A stretch of 64,000 nucleotides of DNA from a phage: sequence record PZ445451.1. One strand, written 5' to 3'. The notes beneath the pieces are model-generated. The model saw only the letters and a program-made list of their open reading frames with translations, was not told the origin of the DNA and searched no databases. A program made the position numbers and the translations under genes. Numbering within the stretch: the stretch's first letter is position 1; each line of letters opens with the position of its first letter. Positions 1 to 60,101 of the stretch are shown piece after piece.

Positions 1-1
1 T

Positions 2-193
2 GGAATCTCCCAGGTAGTAGCAGTTATCACCGAGAAGAAAGGGGATGATCTTCACTCCTCATTGAATAGCTGGGCGGTCGCTAACTTTGGGCAATGGTCG
101 AGCGTTGAGTACATCGAATCCTACCAGGTGCCAACGATTAGCCTGACCGATCTCAACGTTGATCGTCTGTTATGCCTGGATCAATTAAACTAA
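2..193 (+). CDS. 3' end of an upstream gene (partial, unknown product)
   Basis: Frame open from window edge to TAA at 191-193; visibly GC-richer than the AT-rich region that follows. Confidence 0.3.
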   Translation, partial: GISQVVAVITEKKGDDLHSSLNSWAVANFGQWSSVEYIESYQVPTISLTDLNVDRLLCLDQLN

Positions 194-201
194 AAATAAT
201 A

Positions 202-229
202 TTGACAAGACAACTAAAATTAGTAAAAT
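202..229 (+). promoter_or_regulatory. sigma70-like early promoter (TTGACA-16-TAAAAT)
   Basis: Exact -35 TTGACA at 202-207, 16 bp spacer, -10 TAAAAT at 224-229, directly upstream of gene at 281. Confidence 0.5.
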
Positions 230-239
230 GTAATTCATA

Positions 240-259
240 GGGCGGCAATAGTGCCGCCC
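240..259 (+). repeat. GC-rich stem-loop (GGGCGGCA-ATAG-TGCCGCCC) in 5' leader; member of a recurring hairpin family
   Basis: 8 bp perfect stem between promoter and RBS; near-identical copy at 3478-3497. Confidence 0.55.
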
Positions 260-280
260 CTAGTAAGAGAGATTATCAAA

Positions 281-496
281 ATGGCTAATATCCGCACCTT
301 GTTAAAAAATGCAAAGCAAGTTTTATTTTCAGATGACGAGTATTTCAACAAAGACATTACAGGCGTGAAAAATTTAAAAGACGTGAAGGATGTTATCGGT
401 ATCCGTGGATCTTTACGTAAAGGTGACATATACGGTAACAAGGTGCAATATAAACTGTCAAAAGATTATGATTTTACTTTGACAATTATTTCATAA
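281..496 (+). CDS. hypothetical early protein (72 aa)
   Basis: Track ORF 251-496 trimmed to in-frame ATG 281 preceded by AGAGAG RBS. Confidence 0.55.
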   Translation: MANIRTLLKNAKQVLFSDDEYFNKDITGVKNLKDVKDVIGIRGSLRKGDIYGNKVQYKLSKDYDFTLTIIS

Positions 497-541
497 AACT
501 ACTTGTAAACCTGGTAAAATAAAGTAAACTATATTCATCAA

Positions 542-563
542 GGCGGTGGAATAGCCCACCGCC
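542..563 (+). repeat. GC-rich stem-loop (GGCGGTGG-AATAGC-CCACCGCC) immediately upstream of RBS
   Basis: 8 bp stem, no U-tract, followed by AAGAGAAGAGGA RBS. Confidence 0.5.
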
Positions 564-587
564 TAACAAAGAGAAGAGGAAAACATC

Positions 588-758
588 ATGATCACTTTCA
601 CTACCCGTGAAGCCGCTCGCAACGTTGCACGTAAAGTTAACGCCGCCAACCTGGGCGCTACGCTTAAAGCCCCGGTGAAAGATGAATCAGGAAAATGGAT
701 CTTTCCTGGTCTGCGTCACGCTGATAAGCTGGGAACATTAACGTTAAAAAATAAATAA
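588..758 (+). CDS. small hypothetical protein (56 aa), below the 60-aa track cutoff
   Basis: ATG 588 with strong RBS; hand-translated MITFTTREAARNVARKVNAANLGATLKAPVKDESGKWIFPGLRHADKLGTLTLKNK; stop 756-758. Confidence 0.4.
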   Translation: MITFTTREAARNVARKVNAANLGATLKAPVKDESGKWIFPGLRHADKLGTLTLKNK

Positions 759-765
759 TATCCGC

Positions 766-794
766 TTGACAGTAGCATCGTTTATAAGTAAAGT
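766..794 (+). promoter_or_regulatory. sigma70-like early promoter (TTGACA-17-TAAAGT)
   Basis: Exact TTGACA 766-771, 17 bp spacer, TAAAGT 789-794. Confidence 0.5.
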
Positions 795-803
795 AACAAC
801 AAC

Positions 804-824
804 GGCGGGAAATGGTTTCCCGCC
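804..824 (+). repeat. stem-loop GGCGGGAAA-TGG-TTTCCCGCC in 5' leader (hairpin family)
   Basis: 9 bp perfect stem; same core recurs at 3112, 4847 and 5706. Confidence 0.55.
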
Positions 825-844
825 ATCAATAAAGAGATAAGATT

Positions 845-1204
845 ATGAAATCAGTAAAAGCAATTAAAACTTACATTGTGTCGGCTATTTCTTTTGATGG
901 TACTACAACCGAAAAAGAAAAAATCACCGAACTGATGCGCCGTTTTAACTCTGAATACTGGTATCAATCTAATCGTGATCGTTATAATAACAATATGGTA
1001 CAAGCTGTTAAAAGCTGGTTACAAGGTTTACCGTCAGATATCAATATCGCTTTTAATTATAACGAGATCGATCAATTATTAATTGAATGGAAGTACATAA
1101 AAGAAACAAGCAAAGAAACAACCGTTACCCGTGAGCGGGAAAATTATTGGTTATATATTGCAAGCATGATCGTAACTTTGGCAAAATATCATAACGTAGC
1201 GTAA
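845..1204 (+). CDS. hypothetical early protein (119 aa)
   Basis: Track ORF; AAAGAG RBS; promoter plus leader hairpin upstream. Confidence 0.6.
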   Translation: MKSVKAIKTYIVSAISFDGTTTEKEKITELMRRFNSEYWYQSNRDRYNNNMVQAVKSWLQGLPSDINIAFNYNEIDQLLIEWKYIKETSKETTVTRERENYWLYIASMIVTLAKYHNVA

Positions 1205-1218
1205 TCGAGAGGAAAAAC

Positions 1219-1356
1219 ATGAACGCATCACAGCAGATCGAAAAATTCAACCGCAACAAAGCGAGTAAAGATTGGAACGAAGAGATCACCAAGAAAGGCG
1301 ACAAGCGGAACAAAACAAAAAGAGATCGCAGCAGCAAAAGATACTGGAACGAATAA
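1219..1356 (+). CDS. small basic protein (45 aa), not in track
   Basis: ATG 1219 after GAGAGGAAAAAC RBS; Lys/Arg-rich; followed by terminator. Confidence 0.4.
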   Translation: MNASQQIEKFNRNKASKDWNEEITKKGDKRNKTKRDRSSKRYWNE

Positions 1357-1363
1357 CAAAAAA

Positions 1364-1384
1364 GGGCGCAATAAGCGCCCTTTT
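1364..1384 (+). terminator. rho-independent terminator
   Basis: GGGCGC-AATAA-GCGCCC stem followed by TTTT. Confidence 0.6.
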
Positions 1385-1474
1385 AGCTTATATAGAGGCT
1401 TGTTGCTTATAGGCAAGGGTAACGCCAGGATAAGCCTATAAACCACGTTAGACGGCTTTACAGGAGCTTTAAAA

Positions 1475-1657
1475 ATGAAATTAGAGGAAATAAGCAAGGC
1501 ACTAGCCCAGGGGCAAAGGTTATGCGCCCGATATCGTGATCAATATGGCTTCATAACTAGCGGCGTGATCCTGGGGATGGAAGGCAATAAGATTTTTATT
1601 GACACGTTGAAAAACGTTGTATATAGTGACAATATAATCTCAATAAAACATATATGA
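1475..1657 (+). CDS. hypothetical protein (60 aa)
   Basis: Track ORF; CAGGAG RBS. Confidence 0.5.
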   Translation: MKLEEISKALAQGQRLCARYRDQYGFITSGVILGMEGNKIFIDTLKNVVYSDNIISIKHI

Positions 1658-1665
1658 GGCAAGAA

Positions 1666-2067
1666 ATGAAAAAATTATTGATCGCTGGTTTACTCTCTTT
1701 TGGCATGGTTGGAACATCTAGCGCGGCGATATCCTCCACAGTAGCAGAATTAAGCGCCGTTGATGCAATGGAAAACGTCATGATCATTAATAATGCGATC
1801 CCCGATGAAATCATGGAGGATTCACACATGATCGCTTATGGTGCTGTTACACAACTAACGGCAAAAATAGATAAATCTATTGTTAATGGCTTAAATGAAG
1901 ATGTACCATGTGAAATTATTACCAGTGTGCTCACTACTCAAAATTTTACGCCGTGGCTAAAAAGTATTCAAAAAGTACACAGTACAGCCGCAGATCGTAG
2001 CAATGAAAAACTAGTGTCAGCACTTGCAACGTATACCCTAGCAAAATGCACCGAAATAAAAGATTGA
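1666..2067 (+). CDS. secreted/periplasmic protein with N-terminal signal peptide
   Basis: Track ORF 1654-2067; ATG 1666 has a GAGG RBS; MKKLLIAGLLSFGMVGTSSAA looks like a Sec signal. Confidence 0.5.
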   Translation: MKKLLIAGLLSFGMVGTSSAAISSTVAELSAVDAMENVMIINNAIPDEIMEDSHMIAYGAVTQLTAKIDKSIVNGLNEDVPCEIITSVLTTQNFTPWLKSIQKVHSTAADRSNEKLVSALATYTLAKCTEIKD

Positions 2068-2114
2068 CAACATAGAAAGCACGTTATAAGATACACACAA
2101 CAAAGGAGAACTAC

Positions 2115-2417
2115 ATGAACGGCATAGCTAAAACGTTTTTTCTTTTTTCTGGTGTAAATGATCCATCAATAAAAGTCGATAGCGTAAAAGAAAACAATAC
2201 TATCACCGCTAAATTGTTTCAAGATGAAACAAATAACGTGCTAATCATTAATCTTAAAGAAATAACAAAAGGTTATTATACTATTGCTTACCATGCGATC
2301 TATAATGCTGGTACTAGTGAGGAAGTGCAAACAAGCAACAACGAAAGCGCGGCGCTACCTGGTGATCTGGTGCTGGGCGTTATCAGTTTAATTGTCAATG
2401 ATTTTTTTAAGGAGTAA
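2115..2417 (+). CDS. hypothetical protein (100 aa)
   Basis: Track ORF; AAAGGAGAA RBS. Confidence 0.55.
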   Translation: MNGIAKTFFLFSGVNDPSIKVDSVKENNTITAKLFQDETNNVLIINLKEITKGYYTIAYHAIYNAGTSEEVQTSNNESAALPGDLVLGVISLIVNDFFKE

Positions 2418-2421
2418 AACC

Positions 2422-2517
2422 ATGCCCTATTTACATTTATTTTTCGGTATCTTATTGACAGGATCTTTTTTCTTCTGTATGCTTGTTTCTATTGTAAACC
2501 ACGTTTTAAAACATTAA
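2422..2517 (+). CDS. small hydrophobic peptide (31 aa), not in track
   Basis: ATG 2422 after AAGGAG RBS; single predicted TM helix. Confidence 0.3.
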   Translation: MPYLHLFFGILLTGSFFFCMLVSIVNHVLKH

Positions 2518-2526
2518 GGAAACAGC

Positions 2527-2646
2527 ATGAAAATTATTCCCGTACAGTATAGCGTAATAAATCCAGCATATGAGGAAGGAAGGAAAACAAGCATGGCTTT
2601 ATGTTGTATTGCTACTATAGCCATGTTATTATACACTGTGTTTTAA
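2527..2646 (+). CDS. small membrane protein (39 aa), not in track
   Basis: ATG 2527 after AAGGAAACAGC; hydrophobic C-terminus. Confidence 0.3.
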   Translation: MKIIPVQYSVINPAYEEGRKTSMALCCIATIAMLLYTVF

Positions 2647-2675
2647 TAGGTTTTATAGTTGTACGCTTTAAAGGC

Positions 2676-2703
2676 TTGACAATTTTTTGTTATGCTTTAA
2701 AAT
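2676..2703 (+). promoter_or_regulatory. sigma70-like early promoter (TTGACA-16-TAAAAT)
   Basis: Exact consensus hexamers at 2676-2681 and 2698-2703. Confidence 0.5.
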
Positions 2704-2746
2704 ATATCTTGAAAACGGCAAAGGCCGCAAACAAAAGGGTAAAATT

Positions 2747-3070
2747 ATGAAATCTGTGATCGGTGTTTATTTGGATAATTCTGATTTTTTCTATCATCGC
2801 GCTCGTTTCCTTGATGCTATTGATATGATAGAATCAGGCTTTAAAGAATACCGCCTTGCACATGATGACCTGGAAGCATTACAGGGCAATAGTGTTTTTA
2901 CATTGCAAGCGAAAGCACTATGTAAAAGCCGGATCGACATTGCGAGCAAAAAGATAGAACGCGGCATGTCCTGGTTGCGCACCGCAGAAATCAACATGGG
3001 GCAATGGTACGGCAAAAACTTAGAAAATAAACATACCTTTGTCAATGTAGAAAATATTGAAGATTATTGA
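2747..3070 (+). CDS. hypothetical early protein (107 aa)
   Basis: Track ORF 2687-3070 trimmed to ATG 2747 downstream of the promoter. Confidence 0.55.
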   Translation: MKSVIGVYLDNSDFFYHRARFLDAIDMIESGFKEYRLAHDDLEALQGNSVFTLQAKALCKSRIDIASKKIERGMSWLRTAEINMGQWYGKNLENKHTFVNVENIEDY

Positions 3071-3099
3071 TTGACAGCACATCTAACGAGTAGTATATT
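3071..3099 (+). promoter_or_regulatory. sigma70-like early promoter (TTGACA-17-TATATT)
   Basis: Exact TTGACA 3071-3076; -10 at 3094-3099. Confidence 0.5.
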
Positions 3100-3111
3100 G
3101 TATCTCATAGA

Positions 3112-3132
3112 GCGGGGAAATGGTTTCCCCGC
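3112..3132 (+). repeat. stem-loop GCGGGGAAA-TGG-TTTCCCCGC in 5' leader (hairpin family)
   Basis: 9 bp stem immediately before RBS AAGAGATAAG. Confidence 0.55.
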
Positions 3133-3152
3133 CTTAAAAGAAGAGATAAGCT

Positions 3153-3437
3153 ATGAAGATCACAAAAGCACTTTCCAACTATGCAGCACGTCGCGGATTA
3201 TGCTTATCCGTTGAAAACTTAGGGAAAGAAGATTTTTTGTGTTTTTGGGAGCTTGAAAATGAAAGTGAATGGTTGTTCTCTTATTCTATCTGCGAAGATC
3301 AAAACGGTTGTTTGTTAACCTGGCGCGGTAATATCTATCTACCGGAAGAAATCAAAGAAGAATTGCCAGGCACGATCATGACTGAGAAACAGCTTAAGGA
3401 AGTGATTAATTTTGTAGGGCAAAACATTAAAAAATAA
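3153..3437 (+). CDS. hypothetical early protein (94 aa)
   Basis: Track ORF; promoter, leader hairpin and RBS upstream. Confidence 0.6.
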   Translation: MKITKALSNYAARRGLCLSVENLGKEDFLCFWELENESEWLFSYSICEDQNGCLLTWRGNIYLPEEIKEELPGTIMTEKQLKEVINFVGQNIKK

Positions 3438-3438
3438 T

Positions 3439-3467
3439 TTGACACTAGGCAAACAACGTAGTAAAGT
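3439..3467 (+). promoter_or_regulatory. sigma70-like early promoter (TTGACA-17-TAAAGT)
   Basis: Exact TTGACA 3439-3444. Confidence 0.5.
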
Positions 3468-3477
3468 TTATCACATA

Positions 3478-3497
3478 GGGCGGCAATAGTGCCGCTC
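3478..3497 (+). repeat. stem-loop GGGCGGCA-ATAG-TGCCGCTC (hairpin family, copy of 240-259)
   Basis: Near-identical to the hairpin at 240-259. Confidence 0.55.
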
Positions 3498-3518
3498 ATA
3501 ACAGAAGAGAAACAAATC

Positions 3519-3689
3519 ATGATCCCGACTATGTTTTATGTATCGCGCAAAGGTCACAATATTTTTTGGTCTGAAGATTTAAATGAAGCCATGACGTTTG
3601 CCCGTGATCGTGTTGCTATCGGTGGCGTTAACATTACTGTAACCGATGAAAACGGCATTGAATACTATAACGGCGACGATGAAGAGTAA
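3519..3689 (+). CDS. hypothetical protein (56 aa)
   Basis: Track ORF 3489-3689 trimmed to ATG 3519 after GAAGAGAAACAAATC RBS. Confidence 0.5.
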   Translation: MIPTMFYVSRKGHNIFWSEDLNEAMTFARDRVAIGGVNITVTDENGIEYYNGDDEE

Positions 3690-3696
3690 TTAATAA

Positions 3697-3717
3697 GGCG
3701 GGGGAGTATTCCCCGCC
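3697..3717 (+). repeat. intercistronic GC-rich stem-loop (GGCGGGGGA-GTA-TTCCCCGCC)
   Basis: 9 bp stem between stop of previous gene and RBS of next; no promoter in between. Confidence 0.5.
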
Positions 3718-3736
3718 GTCAATAAAGAGGTAAATC

Positions 3737-4006
3737 ATGAAAATATCTTTGGACGTTGCAATCAAGGCCATCGAATCCGGTTACACCCTGGTAAAAGATG
3801 ATAAGGCTAAAATAGTGCATCATGTTAACAAGGAAACAGGCGAAAGCATGATCACATATAAAGCCGCCTACTTTCTCCAATCAGTAGCAGATCCGCGCGT
3901 ACAACGCCAGGTTACAGCGGCTATTGCTAAAAAATTATGTGCTTTACAGGGCACAAGTTTTAACGAGATCGCCCCGTGTTTTGACTGGTCGAGCTTGAAA
4001 AAATAG
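3737..4006 (+). CDS. hypothetical protein (89 aa)
   Basis: Track ORF; AAAGAGG RBS. Confidence 0.6.
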   Translation: MKISLDVAIKAIESGYTLVKDDKAKIVHHVNKETGESMITYKAAYFLQSVADPRVQRQVTAAIAKKLCALQGTSFNEIAPCFDWSSLKK

Positions 4007-4007
4007 T

Positions 4008-4035
4008 TTGACAATATGCTGTTATCTGGTAAAGT
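4008..4035 (+). promoter_or_regulatory. sigma70-like early promoter (TTGACA-16-TAAAGT)
   Basis: Exact TTGACA 4008-4013. Confidence 0.5.
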
Positions 4036-4088
4036 GTACGACATAGGGCGAGGCAATAAGGCAACGCCCATTAATGAGGGGTAGAATC

Positions 4089-4193
4089 ATGTTAGAGAAA
4101 ATTTTCACGGTTGTAATAGTGGGCCTGGCGTTATCGGTTGGATTGGTTGCAACTATGGCTAACATGATCCTATCTTCCCACGGTATTGGATAA
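4089..4193 (+). CDS. small hydrophobic membrane peptide (34 aa), not in track
   Basis: ATG 4089 after GAGGGGTAGAATC; MLEKIFTVVIVGLALSVGLVATMANMILSSHGIG. Confidence 0.35.
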   Translation: MLEKIFTVVIVGLALSVGLVATMANMILSSHGIG

Positions 4194-4203
4194 GGTGAAT
4201 CAA

Positions 4204-4419
4204 ATGATCACGAATAAGACAGGTAAAACAGAATTTTTACGCAGCTTGCAAATAGGTAAACCTGAGATCTGGCATTGCACTAAATCCGCGCATAATGAAA
4301 TGAAAGATTTTACCGCTACTTTACAACGTGTTAAAATATCTATCACACAGAAAAAAGCCTTGTTAGTAGTAGAAAACGAGATCCCGCAAACCATTATTAT
4401 TGTCGAGCGTACAGCATGA
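4204..4419 (+). CDS. hypothetical protein (71 aa)
   Basis: Track ORF 4186-4419 trimmed to ATG 4204 (AAGGTG RBS). Confidence 0.5.
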   Translation: MITNKTGKTEFLRSLQIGKPEIWHCTKSAHNEMKDFTATLQRVKISITQKKALLVVENEIPQTIIIVERTA

Positions 4420-4802
4420 AAACTGAAATCATTAACGAAATGATCAACGGCTATAAAGAAGCCTTTATTTTTGCCGAACCAGCGACGGATCACAATGGGG
4501 AATATATTGAGAATCTAGACGATTATGATTTTTCTCCTAGCGCCCTGAAACGTATTACCAGCGATGTGACCGCCTTTTGTAGTGCCAATGTTGCCGCTAT
4601 CTCTGAGGCAATGAGCGACGGCGCTACAGCAAACCAGATCGGGAATGATTTACATTTTACCCGTAACGGTCACGGCGTAGGTTTTTGGGATCGCCCTGAA
4701 ATATACACTACTAACACCGCCAACCGTTTAACTGATGCAGCTAAATTAATGCCATTGGTGCATGCTTACATTGGTGAAGATAATTTGATTTATATTGACT
4801 AA
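4416..4802 (+). CDS. hypothetical protein (128 aa)
   Basis: Track ORF; start overlaps upstream stop (ATGA). Confidence 0.6.
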   Translation: MKTEIINEMINGYKEAFIFAEPATDHNGEYIENLDDYDFSPSALKRITSDVTAFCSANVAAISEAMSDGATANQIGNDLHFTRNGHGVGFWDRPEIYTTNTANRLTDAAKLMPLVHAYIGEDNLIYID

Positions 4803-4807
4803 AAGTG

Positions 4808-4836
4808 TTGACACCGATCCCCAATATGTTATTATT
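4808..4836 (+). promoter_or_regulatory. sigma70-like early promoter (TTGACA-17-ATTATT)
   Basis: Exact TTGACA 4808-4813. Confidence 0.45.
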
Positions 4837-4846
4837 TACCACGTAA

Positions 4847-4865
4847 GCGGGAAATGGTTTCCCGC
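4847..4865 (+). repeat. stem-loop GCGGGAAA-TGG-TTTCCCGC in 5' leader (hairpin family)
   Basis: Same core as 804-824 and 5706-5724. Confidence 0.55.
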
Positions 4866-4889
4866 CAGGTAATCAAAAAGGTAAATACT

Positions 4890-5279
4890 ATGCGCAACCT
4901 GGTTTCTGTTTCTAACGTTGAAAAATTTCAATCTTTACAGGGTATCGTTAACAACGTAGCGCCTTTTTTAGTCAACGGCTTGATTGCAAAGATGAAAAAT
5001 AAACATCATGCGGCATGGTCTGCTTACTGCTTTGATAATGATGAAAAAGCGGCTGAAATGATGCTAAATATGCTGTTAGACAGTGTAGAATCATCTTTAC
5101 CGGAAAACATCGCAGAAGAGATCACCTATCGTTATAATATGGCGATCACTTACCAGGAGGTTGCGCAATTTAATATGATGGACGATGACGAACAACAGGA
5201 TCAGGAAATGTTTTGGGAGTATGCTGATCGTCAATCGGCTTTTGATGAAAAATTAGCGATGTATTATAACGAATATTAA
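4890..5279 (+). CDS. hypothetical acidic protein (129 aa)
   Basis: Track ORF 4854-5279 trimmed to ATG 4890 (AAAAAGG RBS). Confidence 0.6.
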   Translation: MRNLVSVSNVEKFQSLQGIVNNVAPFLVNGLIAKMKNKHHAAWSAYCFDNDEKAAEMMLNMLLDSVESSLPENIAEEITYRYNMAITYQEVAQFNMMDDDEQQDQEMFWEYADRQSAFDEKLAMYYNEY

Positions 5280-5296
5280 TACACGGTAAAAGAAAG

Positions 5297-5319
5297 GGGC
5301 GCACTAAGCGCCCTTTTTT
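5297..5319 (+). terminator. rho-independent terminator
   Basis: GGGCGC-ACTAA-GCGCCC stem followed by TTTTTT. Confidence 0.65.
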
Positions 5320-5664
5320 GTATTCTTTTTTCACGATGGAAACAACACGTAAAGAATAGGCGTAAAGGTGGCGTAAAACCATCTAAAACCGACTGTAACC
5401 GCTTAAACAAGGTAGGAATGATTAATCACCTTACCAGGGTGAAAAAGCTGTTATAAAGCTACCTAGAGCGTTTAAAGCACATAGGGAATAATTTGCTTTT
5501 TATCTTGCCTTTTATCCTGCTTTTGATTATTATTATGGAACGGGCGGCACCTGGGGACAGGGGAAGATAATCACCGGAAGATCCCGCTATATATTGATAG
5601 CTAATACCTATTAAACAACAAAACATCAAAGGAATAAACTATCAAATCTTTACAATCCTACCTA

Positions 5665-5693
5665 TTGACACAGGATCACCCTTATACTAATAT
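5665..5693 (+). promoter_or_regulatory. sigma70-like early promoter (TTGACA-17-TAATAT)
   Basis: Exact TTGACA 5665-5670. Confidence 0.5.
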
Positions 5694-5705
5694 GTATCCC
5701 GTAGG

Positions 5706-5724
5706 GCGGGAAATGGTTTCCCGC
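5706..5724 (+). repeat. stem-loop GCGGGAAA-TGG-TTTCCCGC in 5' leader (hairpin family)
   Basis: Identical core to 4847-4865. Confidence 0.55.
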
Positions 5725-5743
5725 TTGATATAGGAATCATACC

Positions 5744-5977
5744 ATGATCGAACAAATTAAAAGCACTACACCAAATGTTAACGGCAATGTTTCACACTTT
5801 ATCGGTGATAATGAAAGGGGCACACCATACGCCGCCGTAACCGTGCAACCTAATGGCGATTATTGGTTTACCGTGTACGGATCATACTCTTTCGGACGCC
5901 CGGCACATGATAAGATCTTGCAAGCGGTTAAACCTGCGGGGAAGAATATCACAGCAGAAAAATTTTATAAAAAATAG
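5744..5977 (+). CDS. hypothetical protein (77 aa)
   Basis: Track ORF; promoter, leader hairpin and RBS upstream. Confidence 0.6.
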   Translation: MIEQIKSTTPNVNGNVSHFIGDNERGTPYAAVTVQPNGDYWFTVYGSYSFGRPAHDKILQAVKPAGKNITAEKFYKK

Positions 5978-6052
5978 CTTGCTTTATTTCTTCTGTTAAC
6001 TTATAGTTATCGCGTAGGGCAAACAATTTTAAACGGTAAACGAGGAATCACC

Positions 6053-6436
6053 ATGAGCAATATCATCAACCTGGCAGCGACTGTAAACGGTAAAGATTTT
6101 AACGGCGCTGTAGACCGTGATCCTATGTGGTGCTTATCAGTGTTTAAAGGCGACCTGGTTGAAGTTAGAACAACCGAAGGCTATAGCGATGATTATAAAT
6201 GCGAGATCCATTTACATAACTGGTACACGGGGAAAACTTATGCGCTGAATCACGCATTTATCGGGAAAATTGAATATCGCGAAATGATCGACGAAGAAAC
6301 GGGGCAAGATTTTAGCGATTATGTTTATATCCGTTCAGAAACATTAGCCGAACGCTTGATCGAGAAAATGAAAGCAAAAAATAAAATTAATTTAGCTCAT
6401 TGGCTTGATATAACAAATGATCCGGCTTACAAGTAA
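6053..6436 (+). CDS. hypothetical protein (127 aa)
   Basis: Track ORF; CGAGGAATCACC RBS. Confidence 0.6.
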   Translation: MSNIINLAATVNGKDFNGAVDRDPMWCLSVFKGDLVEVRTTEGYSDDYKCEIHLHNWYTGKTYALNHAFIGKIEYREMIDEETGQDFSDYVYIRSETLAERLIEKMKAKNKINLAHWLDITNDPAYK

Positions 6437-6451
6437 ATAACATTTCACACC

Positions 6452-6478
6452 AGGGCGCACAAAGCGCCCTTTCTTTTT
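6452..6478 (+). terminator. rho-independent terminator
   Basis: AGGGCGC-ACAAA-GCGCCCT stem followed by TTCTTTTT. Confidence 0.65.
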
Positions 6479-6566
6479 ACCTAAATAAAGATGATAGCTT
6501 TTACCTATCAAAAACGTTCACCGAAAAAAGTGAATAGATCGCGGTATCGAGCTAATCAAGGAGCAG

Positions 6567-6707
6567 ATGAACAACCATACCATGAAGATCATAAGGCGCT
6601 TACAACGTGTTTTAGACCGCTTATTTTTAATTTCTCAATGTAACTATCGGGCAAAAACAGCCTTTTTCTTGTCTTTCCTCTTAAATGATAATCATTCTTA
6701 TTTATAG
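6567..6707 (+). CDS. possible small protein (46 aa), not in track
   Basis: ATG 6567 after CAAGGAGCAG RBS; 3' end overlaps a Fur-box-like repeat. Confidence 0.25.
   Translation: MNNHTMKIIRRLQRVLDRLFLISQCNYRAKTAFFLSFLLNDNHSYL
6684..6700. promoter_or_regulatory. Fur-box-like motif AATGATAATCATTCTTA (direct-repeat copy 1)
   Basis: Matches the core of the enterobacterial Fur consensus GATAATGATAATCATTATC; repeated at 6742-6758. Confidence 0.35.
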
Positions 6708-6739
6708 CTGATTATTTATGCAATAAACTGCATAATGCA

Positions 6740-6757
6740 ATAATGATAATCATTCTT
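6740..6757. promoter_or_regulatory. Fur-box-like motif ATAATGATAATCATT (15/15 to consensus positions 2-16)
   Basis: Exact 15-mer match to the Fur consensus core. Confidence 0.4.
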
Positions 6758-7512
6758 AACTTATGACCATCTAACCTATAAAATAATAAGTTATCTAACT
6801 AAATTAAAACTAATTATCCCACCTTTATTTATAACTTACTTTTACTATCTCATTGATAACCTTATATTAAACAACAATAACCAATATAAATCATTACTAA
6901 GCTAACTATAATCTATCTAACCCTTAAAACTATAACTATAATCTATCGAATTGTTGCACAAAGTAACTATTAAATTGTTAGTAACTTTACTAAATAATTA
7001 ATATCCTATCTATTTATGATCTAATCTTTACCTTACTATCTATTACCTAAATAACCATTTCATACAGAAATTATTTCATACAATAACTATAACAAGAAAT
7101 ATAATTCGCAAGCGTATCATTAGCAGCCTATGCCGGACACATAGGCGGCTAATAATAACGCAACTACACACCCCACATAATAACCATCACCGATAGTTAT
7201 TATTTGTGCTTATGTAGCTTGCAACAATTGCAAGCGCAACAATATACATGGTATATTGTATCCCTTACATTGTTGCGGTGCGTTATTATTAGCTAATGTT
7301 TGGAACATTGGCTATAATATAAGCTACATATAATAAGCTATACAATAATAAACATAATGAATAATGACACTGATGATCATAATGCGCCACCTTCCAGGGG
7401 GCGCTATGTGAACACAAAGAAATCTTTCTTGTCAAGAAAAATATCACCATTATTGCGCAAAATTATTTATATCTGAACAGATGATTTTTCATACTATTGC
7501 CCCCTATAGTAT

Positions 7513-7546
7513 CCCTATTTGTTGTAATGTATTCCCCTATTTGTTG
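7513..7546. repeat. direct repeat CCCTATTTGTTG x2
   Basis: 12-mer at 7513-7524 and again at 7535-7546. Confidence 0.5.
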
Positions 7547-7619
7547 AGCCTACTCTCTTAAAAGCGCAATAAATTAGAATTATCTTGATTTTTAGGTAGT
7601 TTTATAGTATAGAAAATAT

Positions 7620-7638
7620 GCAAATGATAATCATTATC
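7620..7638. promoter_or_regulatory. Fur-box-like motif GCAAATGATAATCATTATC (17/19 to consensus)
   Basis: TGATAATCATTATC is an exact 14-mer match to the 3' part of the Fur consensus. Confidence 0.4.
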
Positions 7639-7805
7639 AGCTATCTTCCACAGGTGGCACTATTTCACGCCAGATCATTTCATTTGGCAAGGTGTATATA
7701 GATGTTTAGAAATGCCAAGCCATTGATTTACTTAGAATTTATCTGTTTTGTTGTGAGTAGTGCCTTTCTTGCTCAGAAAATAATCAAAAGTCTTATAAGT
7801 CATTG

Positions 7806-7833
7806 AATGATAATGCAAATGATAATTATTCTC
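7806..7833. promoter_or_regulatory. overlapping GATAAT-hexamer array (Fur-box-like)
   Basis: AATGATAATGCAAATGATAATTATTCTC; two overlapping partial Fur-like sites. Confidence 0.3.
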
Positions 7834-7955
7834 ATTGATATTTGAGGGGGACGGTCGGCAGAAATCGGGGGCGCTAAAAATCGCGTTAAGCACCTCTCGC
7901 AAGCGAGCAGTATTTTGCGGCAAGTTATTGATATTATTGGCTTTACGCTTATGGA

Positions 7956-8063
7956 AAGGGGGTGTGTCGAAATAAATCGGGTATACCGGAAAATTTTTGT
8001 GGCATAGATATTTATTTGTCTATATTATGTACAAAGGGGTGTGTTAAAAATAATAGGTATATA
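7956..8063. repeat. pair of ~30 bp direct repeats (iteron-like) AAAGGGG(G)TGTGT..AAATAA..GGTATA
   Basis: Copy 1 at 7956-7987, copy 2 at 8033-8063, inside a 1.8 kb AT-rich non-coding region. Confidence 0.45.
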
Positions 8064-8292
8064 TAGAATAATTGATAGGGAAATCCTATACTAATCCCTC
8101 CATTAATGATGTTCCTAGGTTGCTGTTCTTGTAACAGATGAAAAGACGCTGTATGATGTGTGGCATGAGACGTAAATTTATAAGATGCAAATAATGCTTG
8201 CATTGAATAGAAATGTCTGTATAGTGGTTTGCATACCGCGCACGACGCGTTTCCATTTTCAATAAAATGTTAGCATTATGGGGAGGTAGAAA

Positions 8293-8754
8293 ATGAGACA
8301 ACTATCTATACTGGAAGCACATGTGCAATGTGTTGCAGATTATGTCAAAGAACACTCAAGTTTGTTGGATGTAACCTGTGCAGTGCAAAATGATGTAGGT
8401 ATTGTCTGTGTGCGACATATCTTATCTGAAACTCGTTATGAAGTATTTCGTGCCAAGTTGTTTGGATGTGATCAAGTGCATGTAAACTTCTTGGATTCCA
8501 ATTTTCGTTATGCTTTAGAAAATATTGATGATTATCTTCCTTGCTCTCCGACCGGATATGTGATGATAGCAGCAAATGAAGTAACACCAAACAACAGTGA
8601 GCGGGAAACTTTGTTACGGAAGAAAATACGCCAACTGCAAGTGTTGAATGAACTGAAAGAAGAGATTGAAAAAGAACTGAAAGAAGATTTTGGTATGCTT
8701 CCAAAAGACGCTTTGAAATGGTTTGATGAACTAGGAGAGGAAAGTTATGAATAA
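8293..8754 (+). CDS. hypothetical early protein (153 aa); paralog of the 14507-14758 product
   Basis: Track ORF; GGGGAGG RBS; HSSLLDVTCAVQNDVGIVCVRHILSETRYEVF resembles HTSLLKVMVVVKDGIGQVNVQHVLSDTVYNVF. Confidence 0.65.
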   Translation: MRQLSILEAHVQCVADYVKEHSSLLDVTCAVQNDVGIVCVRHILSETRYEVFRAKLFGCDQVHVNFLDSNFRYALENIDDYLPCSPTGYVMIAANEVTPNNSERETLLRKKIRQLQVLNELKEEIEKELKEDFGMLPKDALKWFDELGEESYE

Positions 8755-8923
8755 AGAAACTACTGTGTACTTAGTAACAAAGAATACCCCAGGCTGGAGC
8801 CAATGCAGCACTGTCCCTTACAAGATCTGTGCAACATTAGAACTAGCACAACGTGCAGAAGCAGAAGTGAATGCCATGCAATACAGCTATGGTGAAATCA
8901 TTCCTTTTACTCTTGAACAATAA
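8747..8923 (+). CDS. small hypothetical protein (58 aa), not in track
   Basis: ATG 8747 overlapping upstream stop; GAGAGGAAAG RBS. Confidence 0.4.
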   Translation: MNKETTVYLVTKNTPGWSQCSTVPYKICATLELAQRAEAEVNAMQYSYGEIIPFTLEQ

Positions 8924-36245: not shown

Positions 36246-36432
36246 ACTTGGCTACACCATTAACTATAATGTGACCGCAAGACATAACTCCTAGCCAATG
36301 ATCACCATTCTTTTTTAAACGTTTACCGTAAACATCACAGAAACCATTCTGTAATTCGGAAGCCTCATAAGAGGCTCCCTTTTCGAAAACGTCTTTGAAG
36401 TCAGAAATTAATCCAACACAAAGTAGTTTCAT
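36214..36432 (-). CDS. hypothetical protein (72 aa)
   Basis: Track ORF. Confidence 0.5.
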   Translation of the reverse strand: MKLLCVGLISDFKDVFEKGASYEASELQNGFCDVYGKRLKKNGDHWLGVMSCGHIIVNGVAKFEIIKGEKDD

Positions 36433-37517
36433 TAGAAGTCTAACTCCTCGTCATCACTTACATCTTTATTTGCTGAATTCAGTTTGTAAGCTGTAATTTG
36501 GATCTCCTGTGCTGCTGCTTGAATTTGATCTGGATTTAACCAAACATCCATCCAAGGCAGTGGACTTTTCTTCGGTGCACGGAATTTGTGTTTCATTTTC
36601 AGTCTGCGATAGATAGGCGCGGCATTGAAGTAAACCCAAAGTTTGAACAACTCTGCGTTACCACCAACGATAACCCTTCCTTCACTAAACAGATAGTCAC
36701 ACCAATCTTCCTCTTGTCCAACTACCGTATCAAGAATTTCTGTCAGAACGTCGATATTATCTTCGTATACTTTTCTCCAGACAGGATCTTTCAGCAGTGC
36801 ATCAATAATAGCATAATCCATTTTAACGTGCAATAGTTCATCCAACATAATTTTTTGAATAAGTTTAGCTGCACCTACAAACAGTTGCTGCTCTGCTAAG
36901 GCAAATGTTGCAGCAAAAGATGATATGAATTGAATGCCTTCCAGACCGATAAGTGCAATCATTCCTTTCAGAATCAGTAGACGAAGGTTATCATCCTTCT
37001 CAATCAGACCTAGAGCATATTTATGTCCTGCCTCTGCCAGATCACTCATTATCTCTTCAACTATACCCATCCTCTGGAAGATTCTTTCGTTCTCCATAAT
37101 CTGATCGATAACTTCATTTGGATTAGGGATACACTGACGAATAATTTCAGAATATGTCAAAGCGTGTAAAACTTCCATTTCTGATTGCTTCATCATCATT
37201 GCACATGCTTCGTTGTTGCTTAAAAATGGTGCAAACAAAGTGATGATTGATTTAGCAAGTGAATCATTTTCCCACTGGAAAGATAGGTTTTTGATCATAA
37301 CATCATAGTTGCTTTTAGAACAAGCTACGAAATCTTTTCGTGTCTGATCTAAGTTTACTTCGTTTTCATCCCAATCTTGCTGTTTTTGTAGTTTGTACAG
37401 GCGATGCATTTCTGGGTATGTTACGTTAATAGAATCAAAAATACCTAACTGTTCGCCCAAAAATACAGGGTAGAAACCTTCTTTGTAAGTGTCGTTGTAT
37501 AAATTAATTGCTGCCAT
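36432..37517 (-). CDS. nrdB: ribonucleotide reductase class Ia small (beta) subunit
   Basis: Ferritin-like di-iron protein with E..H motifs; immediately downstream of nrdA. Confidence 0.85.
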   Translation of the reverse strand: MAAINLYNDTYKEGFYPVFLGEQLGIFDSINVTYPEMHRLYKLQKQQDWDENEVNLDQTRKDFVACSKSNYDVMIKNLSFQWENDSLAKSIITLFAPFLSNNEACAMMMKQSEMEVLHALTYSEIIRQCIPNPNEVIDQIMENERIFQRMGIVEEIMSDLAEAGHKYALGLIEKDDNLRLLILKGMIALIGLEGIQFISSFAATFALAEQQLFVGAAKLIQKIMLDELLHVKMDYAIIDALLKDPVWRKVYEDNIDVLTEILDTVVGQEEDWCDYLFSEGRVIVGGNAELFKLWVYFNAAPIYRRLKMKHKFRAPKKSPLPWMDVWLNPDQIQAAAQEIQITAYKLNSANKDVSDDEELDF

Positions 37518-37839
37518 TTAAATCCTCCACAATATCACACATTGCTTTTATTGTATCAATGTGTTCTCTCTCCATACCATTCTCTATGTAAGCCTTCTCT
37601 AATGCGTTCCATACACTCTTTGTGAGTAGTACAGTAACCTCTCCCTCATATCTTGCCCTGGTTAAAGCATACCAGGTAGCTTCGGGATCATTGGAAGCCC
37701 ATATTTCAACACTGGAAAATTGAAAACCTGCAATATGATGACAACACCAATCGAATGTAAAATCTTTACTATCTACCAGTGTATAATTGCCCCAACGCCT
37801 TTGTGGTGTTGCCCCAGGTAATACAACTAATGTAGGCAT
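37504..37839 (-). CDS. hypothetical protein (111 aa)
   Basis: Track ORF 37504-37881 trimmed to Met15 (AAGGAGG RBS). Confidence 0.5.
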   Translation of the reverse strand: MPTLVVLPGATPQRRWGNYTLVDSKDFTFDWCCHHIAGFQFSSVEIWASNDPEATWYALTRARYEGEVTVLLTKSVWNALEKAYIENGMEREHIDTIKAMCDIVEDLNGSN

Positions 37840-37880
37840 ATTCCTCCTTAAGAAATGGGGGACAAAGCCCCCTAGCTTCA

Positions 37881-40142
37881 TTACATCTTACAAGACTCAC
37901 AACCGGATTCTTCATCCTCTTGAGCGAGTGAGGTTGCTGATTTTGTTCGACTATTTAGATAGTACAAAGATTTACCACCAAGTTTTGCAAACTGAAGGAT
38001 ATATTGCATTTCTGATTTAATGGATAAACGACCACCTTCCATCTTAGAATAGTCAATCCACTTGTCACATGATGCACCTTGATCTAAGAATTTAGTCAAC
38101 AGTCCATATGCTTCAGCCATATCTTTATCTGGCGTATCCCAAGCCGATTGGTAAATATCTTTTAGTTTATCGTAATCTGGCACAATAAACAAGACATTAC
38201 CTTTTTGGCTTTGTTTATAAACTATAGTATCACGTACAGGATACACAGAGTTAGTCGTATTACTTACAAGACTACTGGACTCATTCGGAGCAATAGCTGC
38301 TAATACACTATTTCGGATACCACCTTGTGCAATTATATCTTGTCGTAAACCTTCCCAATCCATTTTAAGTTTAAAATTGCCAATATCGTCTACAGCTTTA
38401 GCGTAGGTATCAATAGGCAACCATCCTTCAGGCCATTTGGTTTTATGCATCCATTCTGCATTACCTTTCTCTTTTGCCAAACGAAGAGAAGCTCTTGCTA
38501 ACCAGTAATAATGTATTTCTGCTAATTCGTGAATTAGTTTTTTGCCGTAAGGATCTGAATAAGTAACAAAATTACTTGCCAGATAATGTGCAAGGTTTGT
38601 AATACCTACACCGATAGACCTACGTGCTTTAGCAGTGATTTCGTTATGTTTAAACGGATACTGCATTGTTTCAATCACATTATCAATAGTTAGAACGGTA
38701 TAATATGCAACATCTTCATATTCTTCTGGTGTAACACGACCAGCTACAATAGAAGACAGGAAGCATAATGCCAATTCTTGGTCTTCTGTATTCTCACCTG
38801 TGAAAAGATCAGTCATATTGTGAAATGCTTTCGTAGGTAAGAAAATTTCTTGGCACAAGTTTGACTGGTAAATAACATCCTTAAACGGAGTATGCTTATT
38901 AACATTATCCGCAAAGAACATATAAATACGTCCTGTTTCTGCTCTTTGTGTAATAATTTCTGCCAGAAGATCTCGTGCTTTTACAAACTTCTTCTTAATT
39001 CGTTTGCGACTAACTTTTTCATATACTTCTTCAAACTCTTCCTCGCTTTTATAAAGCGCCTCATAGAGTTCTGGTGCTTCGTCATAACTGACTAGCATCC
39101 AATCTTTACCTTTTGCTGCACGGCGCAGGAAAGCATTGTTTACTACAATAGAGTAATCAAGTTTATCTACTCGTTTTTCACTAACAGTAGTTGGATTTTT
39201 CAAACGTACCAGATCTTCAAAATCAGGTTCCAATATTGTAAACGTTACTGTTGCACTTCCACCACGGCTTGCTTGTTTTGATGCTCCAACACTTGTTTCC
39301 ATCCATTTCAGATATGGTAAAAGACCACCGTGAACTATACGGTTGTTCTTAACACCTTGTCCTGTAGCACGGGTTTGGAGGTTAACACCAATACCTGCAT
39401 TATTCAATGTATATTCATGAGCAAGATAGTTAGCAATTGCTAAAGATTCTGCTGTATCATCTGCTCTAAACAGACAACAAGAAGCACTACCTTTAATCTT
39501 AGTACGCAAAGTTGTTAAATAAGGTGATGGTAAATTAATCTTAAGATCACTTACGTAGGTATATAGACGTTTAATGTCTTCTACTCTGCGATCTTTTGGT
39601 TGAATTTCCATTACCTTCATTGCTACACCAATGAATAAAAACTGTGGTGATTCAAAAACCACATCATTGATCGCATCTTTCACAAGATACTTATCAACCA
39701 TCTGGCGCAGTACGGAATAACCATAAGTTAGGTTTTTATCATGATTGATAATTTTACCAATCTCAATAATTTCTTCTTCTGTATAATCCATTTTCCCCCA
39801 ATAGCCTTTACTTACAGACATATTGTAGAAATCCAGGAGGGAGGGGATATTGTGATATCCCCCATGAGCCTGTTTATAGATCATACCAAGAAGTAACCGA
39901 CCTGCCATATCACTATATGCCTGATCTTTCTTATCAATACATGCTGCTATCATAGCTTTATGTAAATCACGAGTAGGCACACCGTCGTAACAACGTTTAA
40001 CAGCTTCGAGTTCAATTTCAGACCAATTTAATTTACCAGCAGCAAACTCTGACCATTTACGAAGTTTTTCTGGATTAAATTCTTCTTTCTTGCCGTTTGT
40101 TTTTGTTACATAACGGATAGATTTGCTTAGATACTGAGTCAC
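37881..40142 (-). CDS. nrdA: ribonucleotide reductase class Ia large (alpha) subunit with N-terminal ATP-cone
   Basis: 753 aa; ATP-cone-like N-terminus; catalytic Cys/Asn/Glu region; C-terminal CxxC tail. Confidence 0.9.
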   Translation of the reverse strand: MTQYLSKSIRYVTKTNGKKEEFNPEKLRKWSEFAAGKLNWSEIELEAVKRCYDGVPTRDLHKAMIAACIDKKDQAYSDMAGRLLLGMIYKQAHGGYHNIPSLLDFYNMSVSKGYWGKMDYTEEEIIEIGKIINHDKNLTYGYSVLRQMVDKYLVKDAINDVVFESPQFLFIGVAMKVMEIQPKDRRVEDIKRLYTYVSDLKINLPSPYLTTLRTKIKGSASCCLFRADDTAESLAIANYLAHEYTLNNAGIGVNLQTRATGQGVKNNRIVHGGLLPYLKWMETSVGASKQASRGGSATVTFTILEPDFEDLVRLKNPTTVSEKRVDKLDYSIVVNNAFLRRAAKGKDWMLVSYDEAPELYEALYKSEEEFEEVYEKVSRKRIKKKFVKARDLLAEIITQRAETGRIYMFFADNVNKHTPFKDVIYQSNLCQEIFLPTKAFHNMTDLFTGENTEDQELALCFLSSIVAGRVTPEEYEDVAYYTVLTIDNVIETMQYPFKHNEITAKARRSIGVGITNLAHYLASNFVTYSDPYGKKLIHELAEIHYYWLARASLRLAKEKGNAEWMHKTKWPEGWLPIDTYAKAVDDIGNFKLKMDWEGLRQDIIAQGGIRNSVLAAIAPNESSSLVSNTTNSVYPVRDTIVYKQSQKGNVLFIVPDYDKLKDIYQSAWDTPDKDMAEAYGLLTKFLDQGASCDKWIDYSKMEGGRLSIKSEMQYILQFAKLGGKSLYYLNSRTKSATSLAQEDEESGCESCKM

Positions 40143-48789: not shown

Positions 48790-49419
48790 TTATGTTTTAA
48801 TCTTGCCAAAATACAATACTTCAGCTTCCTGTCTTGCTGATATAGCATCTTCAATATCAATAAATGCTCCAAGACGGATATCTTTTCCTTGATAGGATAT
48901 ACGAGCAATCCATCTTTTTTCTTTCTCGCTCCACACAACACCTGTTTTACCAGAAGTGTTATTTTTCTGTTTTCGTGTATTGTATGACTGGACAGACCTT
49001 GTAGCCCAGCGACAATTTTCTTTACTGTAATCTTTTTCCGAGTCTATTCTGTCAAGAGATAAACCTTTAGGTCTATCTCCCATATCCTCAAAGAATGCAG
49101 AGAATGAATTTCTCCAAGCATCACAAACCTTAATACCACGACCACCGTAGTATTCAAAGTGAGTATTGTTTTTGTTATAGCATCTCCCTAACATAGCTTC
49201 CCACGATTTGTATGCTCCTGTTTGTGTTGTTTTCGGTCTACACTTGGAACAATAAGAACTTCTATTCTTCCTAAGTGTTTCCATAGTTACCGTGCAAATA
49301 TTACCACAATCACAAGAACAAGTAAAACGTCTTTTGCCATGTTTGTCCCTTTCAATCTCTTCTAAGACAGTATAACAACCGCATTTCTTACCTACAAGGT
49401 CTACTCTCTTGGCTCCCAT
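48790..49419 (-). CDS. HNH homing endonuclease with C-terminal AP2 DNA-binding domain
   Basis: LDRIDSEKDYSKENCRWATRSVQ (HNH_3-type) plus AP2-like GVVWSEKEKRWIARISYQGKDIRLGAF. Confidence 0.75.
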   Translation of the reverse strand: MGAKRVDLVGKKCGCYTVLEEIERDKHGKRRFTCSCDCGNICTVTMETLRKNRSSYCSKCRPKTTQTGAYKSWEAMLGRCYNKNNTHFEYYGGRGIKVCDAWRNSFSAFFEDMGDRPKGLSLDRIDSEKDYSKENCRWATRSVQSYNTRKQKNNTSGKTGVVWSEKEKRWIARISYQGKDIRLGAFIDIEDAISARQEAEVLYFGKIKT

Positions 49420-59561: not shown

Positions 59562-59592
59562 TTTAAAAGGAGGTGTTATGCATCTCCTATAT

Positions 59593-59678: not shown

Positions 59679-59680
59679 AC

Positions 59681-60095: not shown

Positions 60096-60101
60096 AATTC
60101 A

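Follow-up and report, generated by a model that had tools for sequence, protein, structure and literature searches.

A gene-free region of a phi92-like phage read as a genome terminus with a direct terminal repeat, Fur-like boxes and a covarying structured element

The 64,000-nucleotide stretch of phage DNA analysed here (sequence record PZ445451.1; hereafter the window) contains, at positions 6440-8290, a gene-free region that is 100% identical to positions 93540-95390 of Escherichia phage PaulScherrer (Bas60, MZ501100.1), a phi92-like phage of the genus Justusliebigvirus (Stephanstirmvirinae). Homologous regions are found in about 130-140 phage records, all of phi92-like or phAPEC8-like myoviruses, and a gene-free gap of 1.5-2.0 kb lies at the equivalent place in every relative examined. 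As judged from homology and conserved motifs, it represents the end region of a linear phage genome that carries direct terminal repeats (DTR), and it comes to lie mid-window because the assembly is circularly permuted and collapsed. A probability of roughly 0.8 is assigned to this explanation as a whole, that is, to a DTR terminus together with the roles proposed below for packaging signals, Fur-type sites and a structured element.

From left to right, the region comprises the terminator that closes the right-end early operons, a unique, non-coding right arm of about 1.07 kb, the DTR and the left arm, of which about 0.4 kb, between the DTR and the first left-end gene (8293), is non-coding (Table 1). 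Window position 1 equals position 87101 of MZ501100.1 (record length 150,425 bp) and window position 64000 falls beyond the record's last base; on this numbering the window appears to run beyond the arbitrary end of the PaulScherrer record, and PaulScherrer is absent from the five best full-length matches to window 62000-64000. A preliminary description of the region, made from the sequence alone, had called it AT-rich; its GC content is indeed lower (0.33-0.34 against 0.36-0.40), but the difference is modest overall and is more extreme in the tract at 6760-7110. The same description had seen no convincing open reading frame (ORF), and none above 63 aa exists in the region. Two coding sequences annotated in GenBank, bas60_0145 and bas60_0146 (window 6567-6707 and 7357-7476), are not conserved as reading frames in relatives and are probably over-calls. 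A 34-aa hydrophobic ORF (7702-7806, downstream of the promoter-like element P1) was considered as a small membrane protein and rejected, because in phAPEC8 the frame breaks off after 7 codons and conservation is limited to motifs at the DNA level.

The alignment took in Justusliebigvirus, Phapecoctavirus, Klebsiella and Citrobacter phages and five divergent metagenomic contigs (three metagenomic pattern matches were discarded as unrelated, chance hits), and displays islands of conservation against a background of 58-66% identity across genera. No paralogous copy of any motif of the region was found in the other 62 kb of the window, which fits terminus-specific signals rather than a general class of promoter. 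All the elements listed in the preliminary description exist, at or near the positions given there, and their signal is beyond chance. With regard to its overall proposal (a control region with Fur-type sites and/or a replication origin), the Fur-type sites stand at the level of sequence, while an origin is poorly supported; the dominant fact that it missed is, on the homology set out below, the presence of physical genome ends with a DTR of roughly 342 bp. A T5-like first-step-transfer or injection-stop region was also considered and dropped, the window belonging to a phi92-like Justusliebigvirus.

Table 1. Features of the terminal region, in window coordinates (the caret marks a cut).
Feature	Position	Strand	Description
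Intrinsic terminator of the right-end early gene block	6452-6478	+	GGGCGC-N5-GCGCCC and T run; invariant in all relatives
Conserved non-coding block	6490-6565		Short inverted repeats GATAG/CTATC, TTCAC/GTGAA, ...AAATCGCGGTAT...
Fur-like box 1	6681-6699		14/19 to consensus; TGATAATCATTCTTA 12/14 to 7-1-7 motif
Conserved palindrome	6716-6735		TTATGCA-N6-TGCATAA; between boxes 1 and 2; in all lineages
Fur-like box 2	6739-6757		16/19 to consensus
G-poor, A/T/C-rich tract	6760-7110	+	22% GC, 4% G; lineage-specific short repeats, e.g. TAACTATAATCTATCTAA twice
Conserved structured element	7126-7293		170 nt; helices H1-H5; 250 bp left of DTR
H1	7126-7132/7140-7146		Hairpin
H2	7148-7162/7279-7293		15-bp long-range helix, arms 116 nt apart; closes the junction of H3-H5
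H3	~7182-7198		Hairpin within H2
H4	7217-7235		GCTTGCAA-N3-TTGCAAGC; sequence invariant
H5	7235-7277		Variable
CCCTATTTGTTG, two copies	7513-7546	+	Second copy ends exactly at the left DTR cut (…TTTGTTG^AGCC…)
DTR homologue	7547-7888	+	342 bp; predicted left and right virion DNA ends, collapsed to one copy
Promoter-like P1	7585-7613	+	TTGATT, 17 nt, TATAGA; inside DTR
Fur-like box 3	7620-7639		19-mer 7620-7638 is 17/19; perfect 7-1-7 TGATAAT-C-ATTATCA (TGATAATCATTATCA) at 7625-7639
Invariant TAAGTYATTGAAT	7796-7808		1 mismatch to reverse complement of IHF core WATCAANNNNTTR
Fur-like box cluster 4	7809-7839		Overlapping 14-15/19 matches; TGATAATTATTCTCA 13/14 to 7-1-7 motif
GGGG(T/A)(G/C)…GAAA(T/A)AATCG repeat, copy 1	7844-7868	+	Runs into the right cut, …AATCGCGTTA^AGCACC
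Right DTR boundary motif	7882-7900	+	CGCGTTA^AGCACCTCTCGC; cut after 7888
GGGGTG…AAATCGG repeat, copy 2	7956-7980	+	Unique sequence at left genome end
GGGGTG repeat, copy 3	8033-8057	+	Inside conserved block GGGGTGTC-AAAATAAT-GGTATATAT-ATAATTGATAGG
Promoter-like cassette P3	8198-8225	+	TTGCAT, 16 nt, TATAGT; upstream of the first left-end gene (8293)

The placement of the genome ends draws on homology to a DTR determined in a relative and on boundary motifs that match the termini of independent isolates. In phi92 (NC_023693.1, same genus), the GenBank features PHI92_DTR-L and DTR-R delimit two identical copies of 343 bp each; with the end positions taken from this annotation, window 7547 is the counterpart of the left genome end and window 7888 that of the right, and the region is therefore read as the point where the genome ends have been joined in the collapsed assembly. 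The BME3 record (PP239276.1) has its ends at the equivalents of window 7547 and 7887, and a 342-bp DTR obtained with PhageTerm is given in the BME3 paper. The VEcB record terminates at window 7546, and those of PD06 and PHB05 at 7524, just past the first copy of CCCTATTTGTTG. For Schickermooser, which belongs to another genus (Phapecoctavirus), a terminal repeat of 328 bp has been reported (Korf et al.), and 329 bp are identical at the two ends of its record. This record starts with AGCAAGTTCTC (…ATGTTG^AGCAAGTTCTC), which is preceded by …GAATGTTG at the right copy, and ends with …TTCGCGTTA^, which is followed by AGCACTTCT at the left copy; its termini carry the same boundary motifs as the Justusliebigvirus DTR, a prediction that was checked in this phage. 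The deposited PaulScherrer record is itself a collapsed, permuted assembly in which the repeat is present once and unannotated.

The motif GTTR^AGCA is conserved at both DTR boundaries in 13 lineages (including Klebsiella and Citrobacter phages and metagenomic contigs) and coincides with the independently reported termini of phi92, BME3 and Schickermooser. Its consensus is …(A/T)TGTTG^AGC(A/C)… at the left boundary and …TCGCGTTA^AGCAC… at the right, and the two motifs stand 321-353 bp apart overall (342-343 bp in Justusliebigvirus and 329-332 bp in Phapecoctavirus; one divergent contig shows 401 bp, measured from an apparently upstream motif copy). Several repeats that had been described as iteron-like, namely the two copies of CCCTATTTGTTG and the GGGGTG…AAATCG family, directly abut the terminal cut sites. 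The former were found at 7513 and 7535, as previously noted, while other lineages have 1-3 copies of …ATGTTGAGCAC (…ATGTTG^AGCAC) at the left cut, usually behind a small hairpin. In most lineages outside Justusliebigvirus, this GC-rich hairpin of 5-8 bp stands 6-9 nt upstream of the left cut, directly before …ATGTTG^AGC, and varies in sequence among lineages with its pairing kept (ACCCTgttaAGGGT, AGCCTTgacaAAGGCT, GCCCACgaagGTGGGC); PaulScherrer has the duplicated CCCTATTTGTTG instead. The two repeats of about 30 bp noted at 7956 and 8033 are present, but measure 25 nt at 76% identity and are joined by a third copy at 7844 (72-76% within the family). The copies at 7956 and 8033 lie 70 and 147 bp past the right cut, the former being conserved as GGGTGTCCCGAAATAATC in Phapecoctavirus, and divergent lineages have GGGGTGGCnCGAAAAATCGCGTTA^ at the right cut itself. 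From this arrangement we infer that the cut-abutting repeats serve as recognition and cleavage signals for the packaging nuclease: the packaging enzyme would cut concatemers sequence-specifically at GTTR^AGCA on both sides of the DTR, with TTTGTTG on the left and GGGGTG…AATCG on the right as its recognition sites.

The second group of conserved features resembles binding sites of the host iron regulator Fur, for which the 19-bp consensus is GATAATGATAATCATTATC (PMC4506495). The 17-mer AATGATAATCATTCTTA, reported to occur twice, does so at 6684 and 6742 (its only copies in 64 kb), and the 14-mer TGATAATCATTATC, reported as an exact match to the Fur consensus, is unique, lies at 7625-7638 and equals positions 6-19 of GATAATGATAATCATTATC. 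The claimed arrays of GATAAT are a generous description of only two such hexamers (7809 and 7821), which do stand in a run of in-phase hexamers. Matches of 17/19, 16/19, 15/19 and 14/19 to the consensus and one perfect 7-1-7 palindrome were found in the region (published forms of the consensus being matched at 17/19 and 14/14), while the other 62 kb of the window contain only two matches of 15/19. The 7-1-7 motif TGATAATNATTATCA, with at most 2 mismatches, occurs 5 times in the window as against 0.97 expected (0/100 shuffles reach 5), and 4 of the 5 matches fall in 6686-7834. Over 12 lineages, matches of at least 11/14 number 4.26 per kb inside the terminal region and 0.27 outside it, a 16-fold enrichment. 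Furthermore, the positions of the boxes (two in the DTR and two 800-860 bp to the left of it) are conserved while their surroundings are 58-66% identical. All lineages have the module formed by box 1, TTATGCA-N6-TGCATAA and box 2, the core ATGA(T/G)AA of box 1 being invariant in 11 of them; a palindrome of the type of box 3 (TGAGAAT-N-ATTCTCA and variants) occupies the corresponding place in every lineage; and cluster 4 follows the invariant TAAGTYATTGAAT, with its distance to the right cut fixed at ~64 bp. Divergent lineages show joint changes in the two half-sites (TGAGAAT-G-ATTCTCA, with symmetric drift such as GAATGAGAATGATTCTCATTC), as expected of a palindrome bound by a dimer. In the distantly related phage rV5, Fur-like boxes stand in a 2.6-kb gene-free gap, which holds 4 of its 23 matches of at least 11/14.

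By these comparisons, the Fur-like boxes are genuine at the sequence level, being near-consensus, enriched and positionally conserved across the subfamily. The four palindromes would be operators for a dimeric protein, most probably host Fe-Fur, and host Fur is the simplest candidate for the putative binder. If Fur binds the boxes, either transcription through the terminus or its nucleoprotein architecture would depend on iron status. As a side observation, the gap of rV5 (locus L035, 16014-18619; record 104013-106618) occupies the equivalent genome position and contains large inverted repeats (AAGGCAACTAT…ATAGTTGCCTT) and roughly nine tandem, iteron-resembling repeats of the GT(A/G)AACAGT type, and a second cluster of Fur-like boxes is present in rV5 at L035 28910-29060.

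The third feature is a conserved structured nucleic-acid element at 7126-7293, which is unclassified. Among 17 distinct homologues, 98.4% of the pair cells are canonical (0/500 shuffles reach the observed values, and controls with slid partners give 23-47% paired), and compensatory double substitutions occur in 12 of the 40 pairs, with no helix of H1-H4 marked by one-sided changes and none of these at all in H1 and H2; eight further homologues bring new covarying versions of H3. The folding z-scores are -7.1 for plus-strand RNA, -8.0 for minus-strand RNA and -8.3 for plus-strand DNA, and the RNA fold energy is -81.6 kcal/mol on the minus strand versus -63.5 kcal/mol on the plus strand. Watson-Crick pairs fill 665 of 680 cells, the exceptions reading as 4 G·U and 11 mismatches on the plus strand and as 11 G·U and 4 mismatches on the minus strand. 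The element is better conserved than any other part of the region and is the sole segment still alignable in Citrobacter phage Tr1. The palindrome that had been placed at 7243-7278 is real, although its arms, CGCAACAAT (7235-7243) and ATTGTTGCG (7269-7277), lie a few bases off that position and form the inner part of this larger structure. H2 is unable to form as a simple cruciform, and a single-stranded state is therefore implied. The element may thus act single-stranded (as single-stranded DNA or RNA) in the replication or processing of the ends; a cis-acting role of this kind is favoured, with low confidence, because of the analogy with the hairpins at the ends of T7 and N4.

Several points weigh against this explanation. 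In PaulScherrer the DTR is placed by means of 94% nucleotide homology with phi92 and of conserved motifs, and the ends of some Phapecoctavirus records, ESCO5 among them, fall at other points of the region. The BME3 record is untidy, with a duplicated segment and a DTR annotation offset by 73 bp: the homologue of window 7547-7960 and then 7131-8183 is duplicated at one record end, and the 'DTR-L' feature lies ~73 bp off the record end, an assembly or annotation artefact being likely. The Fur-like boxes could belong to a phage protein, and the structured element could work as DNA or RNA, on either strand. Box 3 lies ~7-26 nt past the -10-like hexamer of P1, and the order of TTCTTGAYTT, 17 nt, TAnnnn and a Fur-like box recurs in the DTR across lineages; the -35-like TTCTTGAYTT is invariant, whereas the -10-like hexamer always has A at position 2 and never T at position 6. 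P1 as a promoter is a weak reading, because of this hexamer and because sigma-70 sites are not enriched: P1 is without the -7 T typical of sigma-70 promoters and falls below the threshold of the sigma-70 scan, in which promoter-like matches in the region are not above chance (13 vs 12.2 expected).

With respect to the palindromes, the competing view is that a dimeric phage protein (a terminase small subunit, a pac-recognition factor or a repressor) shares or mimics Fur specificity, and this is a serious possibility, albeit at clearly less than even odds. It would account for the fixed distances from the cuts (~64 bp from the right, 82-110 bp from the left) and for the position of the sites next to an IHF-like motif, which recalls lambda cosB; many lineages favour TGAGAAT-N-ATTCTCA over the canonical TGATAAT half-site and, as the lineages share most proteins, the conservation could be accounted for just as well by a phage factor that is co-inherited. 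Nevertheless, the exact identity to the 7-1-7 Fur motif and the 17/19 match would then be a striking coincidence, GAGAAT half-sites are found in genuine Fur operators too (for example, that of the aerobactin promoter), and small terminase subunits usually recognise direct repeats rather than perfect palindromes. Boxes 1 and 2, moreover, are 800-860 bp from any cut, and Pfam detects no DNA-binding, Fur-like or initiator domain in the ten flanking proteins (the sole match being Phage_30_8 for 6053-6436). That the repeats and palindromes are functionless chance features of an AT-rich spacer is hardly credible. Sigma-70-like and terminator-like matches are at chance level in the region and several short two-copy repeats are not conserved, but this view is already contradicted by the conservation data, that is, by islands that persist across genera, compensatory changes in the structured element and enrichment of the Fur-like motif, and by the coincidence of the region with mapped termini.

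The structured element could also be a free-standing non-coding RNA gene of a new family, which is rather doubtful. The 12 compensatory pairs, the 98.4% of paired cells, the z-scores of -7 to -8, the need of the 15-bp H2 (arms 116 nt apart) for a single-stranded nucleic acid and the standing of the element as the best conserved piece, alone alignable in Tr1, would all suit such a gene. It has, however, no Rfam match at E < 1 (a scan of 5800-8900 with Rfam 15, both strands, E <= 1, gave two chance-level eukaryotic matches with E = 0.16-0.76, none over 7126-7293), and neither a conserved promoter nor an intrinsic terminator flanks it on either strand; its almost pure Watson-Crick covariation (665 vs 15 cells) is expected of a DNA hairpin or cruciform, or of folding on two strands, and the invariant sequence of H4 is like that of a protein-binding palindrome. 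It is improbable, though compatible with the terminus reading, that the region or its right arm (6480-7546) is a replication origin, of the R-loop type when read leftward. A leftward transcript would fold into the nested hairpins, and an R-loop over the G-poor tract would then prime DNA synthesis, in the manner of ColE1 RNA II or T4 oriF, the RNA over the tract being G-rich relative to C. Such a mechanism is in keeping with an AT-rich tract of extreme strand asymmetry (4% G here, 8-11% in relatives) that adjoins a covariation-supported structure, with the more stable minus-strand RNA fold and the lean of the non-Watson-Crick cells towards that strand, and with the terminal inverted repeats described for hairpin priming in phage N4 (PMC3896407). 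DnaA boxes (at most 1 mismatch), on the other hand, number 0 in the region versus 36 elsewhere in the window, the GC skew follows gene orientation with no origin-type switch in the region, no initiator-type gene is adjacent by Pfam, and the flanks of the element, devoid of a conserved promoter on either strand, are the least conserved parts of the alignment. The G-poverty of the tract is kept in relatives, but its sequence and repeats are not: the direct repeats of 6760-7110, such as the 18-mer pair at 6903/6933, are lineage-specific and absent from other genera. The replication origin suggested in the preliminary description has little to support it, what remains being the G-poor AT-rich tract, a conserved trait of composition, beside the structured element.

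Among the other conserved blocks, the invariant TAAGTYATTGAAT is presumably IHF-core-like; exact matches to the IHF pattern in the region (7716 and 7921) are only suggestive. For boxes 1, 2 and 4 no convincing promoter was found, manual assignments having failed the cross-lineage comparison. P3 matches only 3/6 at the -35 hexamer. The 54-bp cassette at 8182-8235 is 92-98% identical in Phapecoctavirus genomes, with surroundings that are ~60-70% identical, and its homologues stand between different early genes (loci L008 3702-3755, L010 4107-4159 and L011 3461-3521), in the manner of a regulatory module that is mobile or under strong selection.

In the wider genome, window 1-6436 (the right genome end in phi92 numbering) contains about a dozen promoter-like sites with a perfect TTGACA -35 hexamer, each before a small ORF, and several strong terminators; it resembles an early 'takeover' block transcribed by the host RNA polymerase towards the genome end, and the block to the right of the region has far fewer TTGACA promoter-like sites. 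An ATP-dependent DNA ligase (49401-50564), a NAPRTase-family protein (57006-58739) and a cluster of 15 tRNA genes on the plus strand (59486-62200, including two tRNA-Met, two tRNA-Leu and two tRNA-Ser) are also present in the window. In the region, MG065639, MG065645, MG065656, MG065689 and others are 95-99% identical to these coliphages and are labelled as Campylobacter, Pseudomonas, Acinetobacter, Serratia and Salmonella phages; these odd host labels are probably contaminant or mis-assignment artefacts, or else mirror the very broad host range that has been claimed for the group.

The kind of region is known, a DTR being already annotated in phi92, while the cut-site motifs, the Fur-type putative operators in the terminal repeat of a virulent phage and the covarying junction are, as far as could be found, undescribed. 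In the literature, phage-borne Fur boxes were found only upstream of sitABCD on temperate lambdoid phages, and no description of Fur boxes or of the structured element was found for Stephanstirmvirinae. Among the roughly 130 related records in GenBank, the majority are permuted or have spurious 'hypothetical protein' annotations in the region, and the GTTR^AGCA motifs let the true ends and the DTR be placed from the sequence itself. The joint proposition that a virulent-phage subfamily has wired the host iron regulator into its chromosome ends and that the 170-nt junction represents a new class of terminus-associated single-stranded DNA or RNA is put forward tentatively and is apt to prove wrong in one part or the other. 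If it held, the Fur operators of the DTR would be doubled in virion DNA and transcription or processing of the termini would be iron-responsive; alternatively, the replicated boxes would form a Fur sponge that de-represses host iron uptake and feeds the di-iron ribonucleotide reductase of the phage. This class Ia enzyme (minus strand, 36432-40142; large subunit of 752 aa, di-iron small subunit NrdB of 360 aa at 36432-37517) would provide a rationale for sensing iron or titrating Fur. If Fur binds, the phage would be a rare strictly lytic one that reads or manipulates host iron status via cis sites in its terminal repeat, a point of practical weight as broad-host-range phages of this kind are therapy candidates for iron-limited infection sites. 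End replication and processing are understood mainly for T7 and N4, and the covarying element would offer a defined, mutable target for their study in DTR myoviruses.

As regards known systems, the closest is the phi92 DTR, which is ~94% identical and agrees in boundaries (window 7547 and 7888), flanking genes and Fur-like boxes, and from which PaulScherrer differs in the single, unannotated copy in the middle of its permuted record; according to the records and the accessible literature, nothing beyond 'repeat_region' has been described for the internal motifs of the phi92 DTR. The putative boxes resemble the Fur operators of Enterobacteriaceae in their 17/19 and 16/19 matches, perfect 7-1-7 palindrome, overlapping hexamer runs and GAGAAT variants, but no clear sigma-70 promoter overlaps them and, instead of preceding an iron gene, they occupy the terminal repeat and the right arm of a virulent phage. 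Lambda cos combines a nick site (cosN) with cosB, which contains the terminase R sites and an IHF site; the likeness consists in a cut site with an adjoining cluster of protein-binding sites and an IHF-like motif within ~100 bp, and the difference in that the PaulScherrer ends are a duplicated 342-bp repeat instead of 12-nt cohesive ends and the sites are Fur-type palindromes. The T7/T3 concatemer junction, where arrays of short repeats and pac signals flank a short terminal repeat, is similar in the length of its DTR (a few hundred bp), its sequence-specific ends, the short repeats next to its cuts and the early transcription signals beside its left repeat, and the likeness, which takes in N4, extends to inverted repeats close to the right end, which might serve in end duplication or priming (in N4, terminal inverted repeats are used for hairpin priming; PMC3896407). 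In contrast to these phages, with which it shares no sequence similarity and whose phage RNA polymerase signals were not identified in it, the PaulScherrer region has a branched 170-nt junction 250 bp from the repeat rather than a simple hairpin, and boxes of a host-regulator type inside the repeat itself.

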